From a virus (lineage: Duplodnaviria > Caudoviricetes), in IMG/VR virus record IMGVR_UViG_3300021958_000024: a DNA stretch of 64,000 nt; one strand, written 5' to 3'. The position numbers and the translations under genes are program-made. Shown here piece after piece: positions 4,922 through 18,193 of this stretch. The first letter of the stretch is position 1. Each line of letters opens with the position of its first letter. Under the pieces are notes generated by a model, which was not told the origin of the DNA, searched no databases, and saw only the letters and a list, made by a program, of their open reading frames with translations.

Positions 4922-4937
4922 CACTTGCTGAAAACGG

Positions 4938-5045
4938 ACTAATCTCCTTACCGAGGCTAAGCAAGTAAAATATGCCTCTCATATCCTGGACTGAGGGTGT
5001 CTAGGAAATAAGTACCTCCACCATTTCCCTGATGGATCTACTTAA
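4938..5045 (+). ncRNA. PhotoRC-II-like structured RNA in psbA 5' leader
   Basis: Hairpins TCCTGGAC-tgagggt-GTCTAGGA (4984-5006) and CCAT-ttccctg-ATGG (5021-5035) with complementary loops (AGGG/CCCT); position upstream of cyanophage psbA is where this motif occurs; boundaries approximate. Confidence 0.6.
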
Positions 5046-17037: not shown

Positions 17038-17364
17038 ATGGGAAAGCATTATTTGTTGAATCTCTATGGATGCCCTTTTAAACTTTTAGATGACCTTGCT
17101 ATCTTGACAGATCTATTAGAAAATGCTGCTTATGCTAGTGGTGCTCAAGTCATTCAGAGCATCCATAAAAAGTTTAAACCTCAAGGCGTAACAGTATTAA
17201 CATTACTTTCAGAAAGTCATATTAGTATTCATACATGGCCTGAAGATGGAAATGCTGCGGTTGACATCTTTACTTGTGGTGATTGTAATCCAAAGATTGG
17301 ATGTGATATTATTATCCAACAACTATGTGCAACCGATTATACACTAAGTTATATTGAACGCTGA
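17038..17364 (+). CDS. speD: S-adenosylmethionine decarboxylase proenzyme
   Basis: GKH, FKPQGVT, LSESHISIHTWPE self-cleavage motif, DIFTCG. Confidence 0.93.
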   Translation: MGKHYLLNLYGCPFKLLDDLAILTDLLENAAYASGAQVIQSIHKKFKPQGVTVLTLLSESHISIHTWPEDGNAAVDIFTCGDCNPKIGCDIIIQQLCATDYTLSYIER

Positions 17365-17454: not shown

Positions 17455-17483
17455 TTGACTAAATAAAATATGAGATCTATTAT
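17455..17483 (+). promoter_or_regulatory. Overlapping sigma70-type and late-type promoters upstream of riboswitch
   Basis: TTGACT 17455-17460, 17 nt, TATTAT 17478-17483; TAAATA 17460-17465. Confidence 0.55.
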
Positions 17484-17549
17484 GACTCATACGTTCATCC
17501 GATTCGCTGTTTGCGAATAGCGAATCGGACGCAAGTAAGTCGCGGAACG
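17484..17549 (+). ncRNA. Glutamine-II (Downstream-peptide type) riboswitch aptamer 1
   Basis: P1 CGTTC/GAACG, P2 TCCGATTCGCTGTT/AATAGCGAATCGGA, CGCAA junction, pseudoknot-capable GACT/AGTC; upstream of a YRG-motif peptide. Confidence 0.75.
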
Positions 17550-17554
17550 GAGTT

Positions 17555-17733
17555 CGTTCATCCCATGTTAGAACTATTATTCTATACAACTCTCACCTGC
17601 CAGCAAACTGATGCTATCATCCTGCGTATGCAGAAAAATGAGAACATTAGTAATGCCCTTAGGATTGAGTTAGTTGAGACAATGAAGGAGTCAAATCCTG
17701 AATGTTATTGGGACGCAAACGACTGAAGGAACG
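17555..17733 (+). ncRNA. Second glutamine-II-type aptamer whose P2 loop holds an ORF
   Basis: CGTTC-A-TCCCA (17555-17565) ... TGGGA-CGCAA-ACGACTGAAG-GAACG (17709-17733): same elements as aptamer 1 with a ~143-nt loop. Confidence 0.6.
17565..17726 (+). CDS. 53-aa hypothetical protein nested in aptamer 2
   Basis: MLELLFYTTLTCQQTDAIILRMQKNENISNALRIELVETMKESNPECYWDAND; hydrophobic N-terminus, two Cys. Confidence 0.65.
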   Translation: MLELLFYTTLTCQQTDAIILRMQKNENISNALRIELVETMKESNPECYWDAND

Positions 17734-17766
17734 GGGCAACAATCCCATTCTTTTAGGAGTAGACTA

Positions 17767-17937
17767 ATGCTTAACACACTTAATATGATTAGAACGCAGA
17801 TTCAAAAGCAATCTGCTCTCCATGACGCTCAGATTTCTCATACTGCTTATCGTGGTATTGAGTATAACATCTGTGGTCATGAACCCAAGGAAACCCGCGG
17901 TACATTCTGCTATCGCGGCCATACTTATAATAAGTGA
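17767..17937 (+). CDS. DUF4278-like YRG peptide (related to GS inactivating factor IF17 N-terminal domain), not in ORF track
   Basis: MLNTLNMIRTQIQKQSALHDAQISHTAYRGIEYNICGHEPKETRGTFCYRGHTYNK; two YRG..Y motifs; AGGAG SD. Confidence 0.75.
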   Translation: MLNTLNMIRTQIQKQSALHDAQISHTAYRGIEYNICGHEPKETRGTFCYRGHTYNK

Positions 17938-17955
17938 GTTACTTGTAAACGTATG

Positions 17956-17987
17956 GAAGAGGGTTCTTGACGAACCCTCTTTTTTTG
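17956..17987 (+). terminator. Intrinsic terminator with embedded -35 element
   Basis: AAGAGGGTTC-ttgac-GAACCCTCTT + T-tract; TTGACG in loop with TAAAAT downstream. Confidence 0.8.
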
Positions 17988-18016
17988 TGTAAAATATGGG
18001 AGGTTCTAAAAAGAAA

Positions 18017-18193
18017 ATGAACAAAGAAAAAGTATCACTCATTATCAAAAATATGGAATCTCTTGTTCGACTCCTTAAGATTGAGATTGAGCAGGAAGAA
18101 GAAAATGTACTTGGAGAATATGAACTGTTCCCCGGTTATCCAGTAAATCTTCCAGATTCGAAATATGAACCAGACTACTATGAGGAACCGTAA
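18017..18193 (+). CDS. Hypothetical protein
   Basis: MNKEKVSLIIKNMESLV; downstream of promoter. Confidence 0.6.
   Translation: MNKEKVSLIIKNMESLVRLLKIEIEQEEENVLGEYELFPGYPVNLPDSKYEPDYYEEP

Follow-up and report, generated by a model that had tools for sequence, protein, structure and literature searches.

A small-protein gene within an aptamer hairpin loop of a putative two-core glutamine riboswitch of marine cyanophages

Glutamine riboswitches, their tandem arrangements, their link to DUF4278/YRG genes and a few copies in cyanophages have been published (PMC2864571, PMC6212724, PMC9481103, PMC9964418). For the DUF4278 gene gifB of Synechocystis, a glutamine ON switch acting by release of the Shine-Dalgarno sequence (SD) has been proposed, and Prochlorococcus IF17-like versions are without the C-terminal part of IF17 needed for interaction with glutamine synthetase (PMC6212724). 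Tandem glutamine riboswitches are known as 157 doublets (PMC9481103). A 2017 survey counted no more than two glutamine aptamers in the genomes of cyanophages, and its conclusion was that riboswitch use is rare among phages (PMC5473149). Here we describe an element in a 64,000-nt stretch of DNA (the window) from a virus of the Caudoviricetes, IMG/VR record IMGVR_UViG_3300021958_000024. Positions 17455–17990 of the window form a self-contained unit consisting of a promoter, two glutamine-aptamer cores, a nested open reading frame (ORF), an SD-sequestering helix, a DUF4278/double-YRG gene and a terminator. As judged from sequence comparison, this layout, with a gene in its own hairpin loop, is conserved in hundreds of ocean phages.

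The element resembles the type 1 glutamine riboswitch (glnA RNA, RF01739), which in Synechocystis gifB switches expression on by releasing the SD (PMC6212724), in its P1 strands CGUUC/GAACG, its hairpin right after an A, its AAGUA...GAAG around P3, its three-way junction and its location upstream of DUF4278 genes. It differs from type 1 in that P3 ends in a second core-like three-way junction where type 1 has a small loop, that a protein gene of 52–68 codons lies in one hairpin loop, that the linker reads CGC...G as in type 2 (type 1 has CGG...C), and that the window scores below the Rfam cut-off. With Glutamine-II (the Downstream-peptide motif, RF01704) it shares the order CGUUCA-hairpin-CGC...GGAACGG, the marine picocyanobacterial setting and the short downstream YRG/DUF4278 peptides (PMC2864571, PMC6698751). 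However, scores on that model are 17–30 bits here against a cut-off of 33, and no conserved hairpin encloses GGAACGG, so that the closing helix would be nested and not a pseudoknot as in Glutamine-II. Like tandem glutamine and tandem glycine riboswitches, the element has two same-ligand domains ahead of one gene, an arrangement expected to sharpen the response, but here covariation indicates strand exchange, a shared helix and a single expression platform.

Coding sequence within a functional RNA fold is known from other systems. Group I introns carry homing-endonuclease ORFs in peripheral loops, and in the Salmonella mgtA leader translation of the embedded mgtL ORF changes the leader fold. 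The HNH endonuclease ORF found in the aptamer loops of some relatives of the window element (see below) parallels the intron-borne endonucleases. In contrast to both of these systems, the host RNA here is a small-metabolite aptamer of ~90 nt without its cargo, and the cargo is a conserved, selected small protein whose start and stop codons both lie in aptamer helices. An ORF inside a glutamine-aptamer hairpin, or a strand-exchanged fold with a shared P3, was not found described in full-text searches of the literature; the fold may have a prior drawing in the primary aptamer paper.

The original prediction, made from the window sequence alone, proposed two glutamine aptamers in tandem, the second enclosing a whole ORF. 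All of its listed elements, namely both cores, the overlap of ATG and stop codon with aptamer strands, the SD, the 56-aa double-YRG ORF and the terminator, are present in the window. The helix that would have to span the ORF is P2b, 5 bp long, with strands TCCCA and TGGGA. Its pairing was assessed in 246 unique ORF-enclosing units that were picked without using complementarity: a 3' core without a nearby 5' strand was combined with the nearest upstream CGTT-N-A and then with an ATG whose ORF ends inside the 3' core. In these units 95% of P2b cells are standard pairs, and the changes are compensatory. Pair 1 is U-A in 242 units and C-G in 3; pair 3 is C-G in 211, U-A in 27 and U-G in 8, with no mismatches; pair 4 is C-G in 130, U-A in 101 and U-G in 8, with 7 mismatches; pair 5 is A-U in 184, C-G in 6 and U-A in 3, while 42 units have A-A. 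Strand combinations such as UCUUA/UAAGA, UCCUC/GAGGA, UCUCC/GGAGA and CCCCA/UGGGG illustrate the range. By the measure of this covariation, the P2b helix spanning the ORF is real. Riboswitch aptamers are normally compact and non-coding, whereas here an aptamer helix closes over 150–550 nt of translated sequence.

The enclosed ORF is interlocked with the aptamer at both of its ends. In the window the A of the nested ATG (17565–67) is the last base of TCCCA, and the last codons TGG GAC GCA AAC GAC TGA (W-D-A-N-D-stop, 17709–26) are the 3' aptamer strand. In 226 of the 246 units, across three ORF families and both loop positions, the AUG keeps this offset of 10 and its A ends the P2 5' strand. 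The stop codon always lies within an aptamer element: in CGACU-G/A-A, in CGCAAGUAA or at the very beginning of the P2 3' strand, whose first three bases it then forms. For 51 unique sequences of 53 codons, the median ratio of nonsynonymous to synonymous substitution rates (dN/dS) is ~0.19, and the entropies at codon positions 1, 2 and 3 are 0.70, 0.33 and 1.04. The nested ORF is thus, on its substitution pattern, a real gene under purifying selection. An ORF lying entirely inside an aptamer hairpin, with start and stop in aptamer strands, had been part of the original prediction, and the 95% pairing of P2b together with the dN/dS of ~0.19 bears it out.

The last five codons, W-D-A-N-D, have zero third-position variation, while all other codons after the initiating ATG vary by 0.6–1.9 bits. 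Since synonymous variation is absent there, these codons are also constrained as RNA, and they make a clear case of dual RNA and protein coding. Furthermore, protein tails track the RNA, being x-D-A-N/H-D in the second loop position and L/I-G-R-K in the first, which suggests that the RNA sets the C-terminus of the nested protein. At two loci (L314 501–698; L142 13318–13479, minus strand), phrog_6471-like or phrog_504-like bodies were seen with a tail fitting the aptamer position that they occupy (...RDAKAD, ...WDAKAD). For the nested product a small, helical protein with two conserved cysteines is predicted: AlphaFold2, run on the 51-sequence alignment, gives a helical hairpin with a mean predicted local distance difference test score (pLDDT) of 85.7, and one Cys is invariant and a second nearly so. 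Residues 51–53 have a mean pLDDT of ~50; such a low-confidence C-terminal tail is as expected if the RNA dictates it. Searches with the nested protein found no Pfam match, nothing structurally similar at a significant level among PDB entries and, in the ESM Atlas, no neighbour with a name.

The features of the unit, all on the + strand, are as follows.

17455–17483 (+): sigma-70-type promoter, TTGACT, 17-nt spacer, TATTAT; 10 of 12 consensus matches
17492–17496 (+): core 1 5' strand CGUUC (outer P1), then A; invariant in relatives
17498–17529 (+): P2a hairpin of core 1, 14 bp; length and sequence variable, with compensatory pairs in relatives
17530–17537 (+): outer-core linker CGC, then AAGUA (5' E-loop half, 17533–37); from the Rfam Glutamine consensus
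17538–17542 (+): AGUCG, 5' strand of the shared P3, complementary to 17720–24; from covariation
17544–17550 (+): GGAACGG, of which 17545–49 form P1' with 17555–59; from covariation and the minimum-free-energy fold
17555–17559 (+): CGUUC, inner-core 5' strand (P1'), then A; from covariation and RNAalifold
17561–17565 (+): UCCCA, P2b 5' strand, pairing with 17709–13; its last base is the A of the nested AUG
17565–17726 (+): nested ORF, 53 codons and UGA (phrog_504, T4-GC_430)
17709–17713 (+): UGGGA, P2b 3' strand, within codons W49–D50
17714–17724 (+): inner-core linker CGC, AAA, CGACU (P3 3' strand, 17720–24), overlapping codons A-N-D and the first base of the stop codon
17725–17734 (+): GAAG (3' E-loop half, 17725–28), GAACG (outer P1 3' strand, 17729–33) and G17734
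17723–17759 (+): SD-sequestering helix, 17723–31 with 17748–56, around a small hairpin (17733–46); from the minimum-free-energy fold and covariation
17755–17759 (+): SD, AGGAG
17767–17937 (+): downstream 56-aa ORF with two YRG motifs (phrog_545, T4-GC_937, DUF4278-like)
17955–17990 (+): intrinsic terminator (17955–83), 12-bp stem and then a T run

Core 1 reads CGTTC (17492–96), A, a 14-bp hairpin (17498–17529), CGCAAGTAAGTCGC and GGAACGG (17544–50), its linker at 17530–43 being CGC-AAGUA-AGUCG-C. An AGUU linker joins this GGAACGG to the CGUUC of core 2, which reads CGTTC (17555–59), A, TCCCA (17561–65), TGGGA (17709–13), CGC, AAACGACT, GAAG, GAACG (17729–33) and G (17734). The segment 17725–17734 is invariant across 301 unique relatives, and its G17734 is the predicted long-range partner of C17532.

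All four closing strands of the window are interchangeable (CGUUC twice, GAACG twice) and each unit holds a full set of core nucleotides, so the two cores could be read, as originally proposed, as sequential independent aptamers (17492–96/17545–49 and 17555–59/17729–33), in the manner of the pseudo-cooperative doublets described for tandem glutamine riboswitches (PMC9481103). Natural variation at the junction argues against this. Of the unique contexts in which the 3' strand of core 1 meets the 5' strand of core 2, 248 combine GGAACG with CGTTC, 15 combine GCAACG with CGTTG and none is mixed. The G-to-C/C-to-G variant is a mismatch in both self-closing helices, yet the inner hairpin (17545–49/17555–59) stays perfect in all 15 contexts.

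The linkers of the two cores also pair with each other. The segment after AAGUA in linker 1 is complementary to the segment before GAA in linker 2; over 39 strand combinations, pairs fill 170 of the 195 anchored cells, shuffling gives a mean of 147, and none of 5000 shuffles reached the observed value. The pairs seen include AGUCG/CGACU, AAUCG/CGAUU, GGUCA/UGACU, AGACU/AGUCU, GAGAUAUG/CAUAUCUU and GAGCAUA/UAUGCUC. Longer forms have a conserved A-C mismatch, and one group, AGCCGAC/GCCGACU, is paired at 5 of its 7 positions, the A-C and C-A mismatches being conserved and neighbouring variants compensating. By its sequence setting this shared helix is the P3 of the type 1 consensus, flanked by the two E-loop halves. 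With sequential aptamers the covarying P3 becomes a pseudoknot across both aptamers, and the E-loop halves AAGUA and GAAG fall in different units, whereas P3 nests cleanly in an intertwined fold.

Two further analyses, both on compact relatives in which the second core is uninterrupted, chose the composite arrangement. RNAalifold, applied to 63 compact tandems, predicted outer P1 and the inner hairpin de novo, with 96.6% of the fold paired and a covariation score of 0.246 against 0.078 for shuffled alignments (0 of 500 shuffles as high). The Rfam Glutamine model recognised the compact tandem of locus L100 as one composite aptamer with 42.9 bits, above its cut-off of 35. The alignment takes the 5' strand, the hairpin and AAGUA from the first unit, then P3 with an insert of 48 nt, and GAAGGAACG from the second. 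The two arrangements are close in nearest-neighbour energy for the window (-80.9 kcal/mol intertwined, -77.9 sequential), the constrained sequential fold being just 3 kcal/mol worse. Taking together the inner-hairpin covariation, the shared P3, the Rfam composite and the outer P1 found by RNAalifold, sequential aptamers are disfavoured; the two cores are probably not sequential and independent, and we regard a pseudo-cooperative tandem as quite improbable.

The element would instead consist of two three-way junctions joined via the shared P3, the outer core being closed by the ends of the element and the inner core, circularly permuted, by a linker of 2–5 nt. Four helices (P2a, P2b, P1' and P3) have covariation support, as has the anti-SD helix described below. 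The proposal of two cores stands but that of sequential pairing probably does not, since 17545–49 covaries with 17555–59 and the linkers share P3. Similarly, of the two stems that the original prediction offered for a covariation check, TCCCA/TGGGA shows compensatory changes, while for CGTTC/GAACG the outer strands are invariant and it is 17545–49 that covaries with 17555–59. A role of the second CGUUC as a mere sequestor of the first aptamer was ruled out, as relatives carry a complete compact second core with the same flanks.

Both cores are supported by their motifs as glutamine-riboswitch cores, although database models recover them poorly. At the gathering threshold Rfam did not report a glutamine element in the window, and the only family above threshold was PhotoRC-II at 4932–5019 (+), with 43.9 bits (cut-off 39). 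With permissive settings, 17490–17553 scored 19.8 bits on Glutamine (RF01739, cut-off 35) and 17.2 bits on Glutamine-II (RF01704, cut-off 33), both below cut-off, while the split second core went undetected by Rfam models even then. Core 1 of relatives reaches 27–30 bits on Glutamine-II (cut-off 33). The pseudoknot of Glutamine-II, with a 3' strand in the second hairpin loop, was not found here beyond an inconsistent 3-bp CGC/GCG match. A covariance model derived from the 63 compact tandems returned the window element as two pieces, 17490–17588 (21.2 bits) and 17612–17775 (22.3 bits), indicating that such searches cannot bridge the ORF. The expectation that covariance-model searches would miss the element was therefore correct, and the element changes the picture of phage riboswitch use, given that standard searches of this kind miss it and that 416 phage genome records match part of the locus.

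The low scores tell against a glutamine aptamer, and the conserved strands might instead serve as a protein-binding or processing site, or as a DNA palindrome at the junction, the aptamer likeness being vestigial. The junction variant is indeed a near-perfect DNA palindrome, with loops TTC and AAC that are mutually inverted. Nevertheless, we find such a role very improbable. The glutamine-pocket nucleotides have been reported as C1–C5, G18, C19 and G35–G41, the role of CGC coming from the Glutamine-II crystal paper (PMC6698751), and hundreds of sequences retain all of them (CGUUC, A, CGC, GGAACGG) in both cores; variation is confined to the helices and is compensatory. The P1 sequence CGUUC/GAACG and the hairpin right after the conserved A are present in the window, the hairpins covary, and the E-loop AAGUA/GAAG flanks P3, its halves ~180 nt apart. 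The pattern CGCA-N4-16-GGAACGG has 2 matches in 64 kb against 0.02 expected by chance, and these are the only ones in the 90.7-kb record (47% complete by CheckV). Moreover, the element is located in the 5' leader of a DUF4278/YRG-peptide gene, an association that is a hallmark of known glutamine riboswitches. Core motifs matching both Rfam Glutamine and Glutamine-II, together with the 42.9 bits of the compact relative, uphold the predicted identity.

Relatives of the locus are widespread. A 621-nt query of the region found the 416 records, almost all from Synechococcus or Prochlorococcus myoviruses, and the annotations of Syn1 and S-BM3 place the two small ORFs in the conserved clusters T4-GC_430 and T4-GC_937. 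Among 80 IMG/VR loci retrieved by the nested protein, nearly all have CGTTC 10 nt ahead of the ATG and GGAACG just past the stop, and nearly all have the upstream first core with its variable hairpin and a TTGAC/TATAAT promoter. The split arrangement recurs in hundreds of related phage loci. The compact relatives, of which 66 unique tandems were collected, act as a natural deletion test of the nested ORF: in L100 and L113 the uninterrupted second core is CGUUCA, a short hairpin and CGCAAACGACUGAAGGAACGG, followed by the same SD and YRG gene. Compact second cores of relatives score 33.9–34.3 bits on Rfam Glutamine (cut-off 35). Given the shared flanks and these scores, the split second unit and ordinary glutamine aptamers are homologous, a gene having taken the place of the hairpin loop.

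Either loop can house an ORF. A phrog_6471 ORF of 64–68 aa lies in the hairpin of the first core in other loci, where the second core is compact; a phrog_13397 ORF of 64 aa lies in the second core of others; and L107, L211 and L217 have ORFs in both hairpins. An HNH endonuclease ORF of 182 aa, terminating in W-D-A over the aptamer 3' strand, lies in the aptamer hairpin loop of a few loci (L005 903–1471; also L087, L117 and L133). A separate 192-aa ORF, judged GIY-YIG-like by eye, was seen between the first core and the second 5' strand (L005 111–689; also L006–L009, L029 and L071). From these sequences, homing-endonuclease-like genes appear to have invaded the locus in some relatives.

These arrangements bear on whether the nested ORF is only a passenger that borrows the promoter of a real riboswitch, its loops tolerating insertions with no designed link to ligand sensing. 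ORF-less compact tandems exist with the same downstream gene, ORFs occupy either loop, and a selfish HNH endonuclease gene takes the same position in some loci, all of which would suit a passenger. Yet in all but 20 of the 246 units the AUG includes the final base of the P2 5' strand, and the stop is always in an aptamer element. Any ribosome on the nested ORF must unwind P2b, P3 and outer P1. Profile comparison also shows the three small-ORF families to be homologous, at probabilities of 97.8% and 88.9%, a third value of 98.9% being too high because one of the alignments has mixed membership; this homology points to a long association between ORF and aptamer. On balance, we judge a mere passenger unlikely.

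In the predicted expression platform, CUGAAG or CUAAAG, a segment running from the end of P3 through the nested stop into the E-loop strand, has its pairing partner in CUUCAG or CUUUAG, right before the SD and extending into it. Of the cells of this anti-SD helix, 97.6% are paired in 167 unique contexts, and at the middle base of the nested stop the pair is G-C in 67, G-U in 62 and A-U in 38, but never A-C. The minimum-free-energy fold of the window element (-90.9 kcal/mol, z-score -5.35) holds the anti-SD helix, the inner hairpin and P2b. The anti-SD helix cannot coexist with outer P1 and the E-loop. The protein encoded downstream matches DUF4278 (PF14105) with 21.1 bits (E 4e-4), below the cut-off of 25.3, but each of 10 diverse positional homologues matches the family, 5 exceeding the cut-off and the best reaching 51 bits, and two [YF]RG motifs are found in 272 of 279 unique downstream homologues. 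By this homology the downstream gene is, as predicted, DUF4278-like and probably a member of that family.

From the anatomy, the conservation, the covarying helices, the selection on both ORFs and the homology to compact aptamers we infer ligand binding, its stoichiometry, the direction of the switch and its interplay with translation, as follows. It is reasonably probable, in our view, that the unit is a glutamine-responsive translational switch built from two intertwined cores, one shared helix and a conserved small-protein gene in the inner-core loop. In the folded state, outer P1 (17492–96/17729–33), P2a (17498–17529), the E-loop AAGUA/GAAG and P3 (17538–42/17720–24) would form the outer core; in the inner core, P1' (17545–49/17555–59) would form and P2b (17561–65/17709–13) would close over the 53-codon ORF. 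Glutamine would bind one or both cores. Without glutamine, CUGAAGGAA (17723–31) would pair with the sequence directly ahead of the SD of the DUF4278 gene and with part of that SD. Once the outer core folds, it would remove this anti-SD strand and the DUF4278 gene would be translated (an ON switch), the same SD-release logic as that proposed for the gifB glutamine switch (PMC6212724).

In the folded state the nested initiation region (P1', A and P2b) would be occluded, and a ribosome translating or terminating on the nested ORF would have to open P2b, P3 and outer P1. Because the AUG lies in P2b beside P1', and the end codons and stop lie in P2b, P3 and the E-loop, nested translation and the folded, liganded state would be mutually exclusive. 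The nested protein would then be made when glutamine is low or just after transcription, and termination at the nested stop, 41 nt upstream, may briefly lay the downstream SD open. With the start and stop codons of a gene forming part of the sensor, the element offers a natural system for competition between translation and ligand-dependent RNA folding, and its layout may tie two small genes in opposite ways to host nitrogen status. A glutamine-tuned IF17-like protein and a two-cysteine small protein are candidates for manipulating host nitrogen metabolism during infection. In a more far-reaching version, the unit would be a two-way toggle in which the glutamine-bound, two-site intertwined aptamer hides the nested start and frees the downstream IF17-like ribosome-binding site while ribosomes on the inner gene unfold the sensor, and most ocean cyanomyoviruses would carry such a device for reading host nitrogen; this version we hold tentatively and regard as somewhat doubtful.

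Several observations weigh against the glutamine-responsive switch in the form given here. The outer P1 strands are invariant in relatives; since they never vary, this helix is not demonstrated by covariation, and its pairing is inferred by exclusion of the alternative, from nesting and from the Rfam consensus. The junction variant is scattered over the tree of ORF1 and ORF2, requiring 10 parsimony changes, and it may therefore have spread by recombination instead of arising repeatedly. Both folded models lie ~10–13 kcal/mol above the SD-sequestered fold in nearest-neighbour energy, a deficit that tertiary contacts, ligand or co-transcriptional folding must cover. The inner hairpin and P2b are also present in the predicted ligand-free fold, making it uncertain that translation of the nested ORF depends on glutamine. 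Finally, the occurrence of the HNH endonuclease ORF at the same loop position in some loci indicates that the loop tolerates cargo without regulatory logic.

The window is part of a T4-like cyanomyovirus, carrying the PhotoRC-II RNA, speD (17038–17364) and, downstream, a thymidylate-synthase gene; the riboswitch unit sits between speD and the next small genes. Transcription of the unit is predicted to start at ~17490, 1–2 nt ahead of the first aptamer base, and TTGAC is found upstream of the element in 181 of 299 unique related upstream sequences. An inverted repeat with covarying arms often surrounds the -10 box ahead of the first CGTTC (seen in loci from L003 to L164), for example GGTC-TATAAT-GACC, GTGC-TATAAT-GCAC, AGAGT-TATAAT-ACTCT and TAGACGT-TATAAT-GCGTCTA; in the window (17470–17491) the arms are TATGAG and CTCATA. 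By a strict count limited to arms directly flanking the -10 hexamer, arms of at least 4 bp occur in 54 of the 299 upstream sequences. The repeat could be an operator, or a hairpin in speD read-through RNA.

At some loci (L035, L037–L039, L066, L118 and L203), GGAACGG is followed by another conserved stretch, GGGAAAACACGGATCC...GAAA...GAGAAGGTTAATTTTCA, in place of the usual SD and DUF4278 gene. On the minus strand of the related contig L104 (1–133), a manA RNA of 105.5 bits, cut at the end of the locus, lies ~3.3 kb from the riboswitch locus. In the window, a second promoter-like site, TTGACG-17-TAAAAT at 17967–17995 (+), overlaps the terminator of the unit and precedes a small ORF at 17996–18193 with a weak phrog_878 match.

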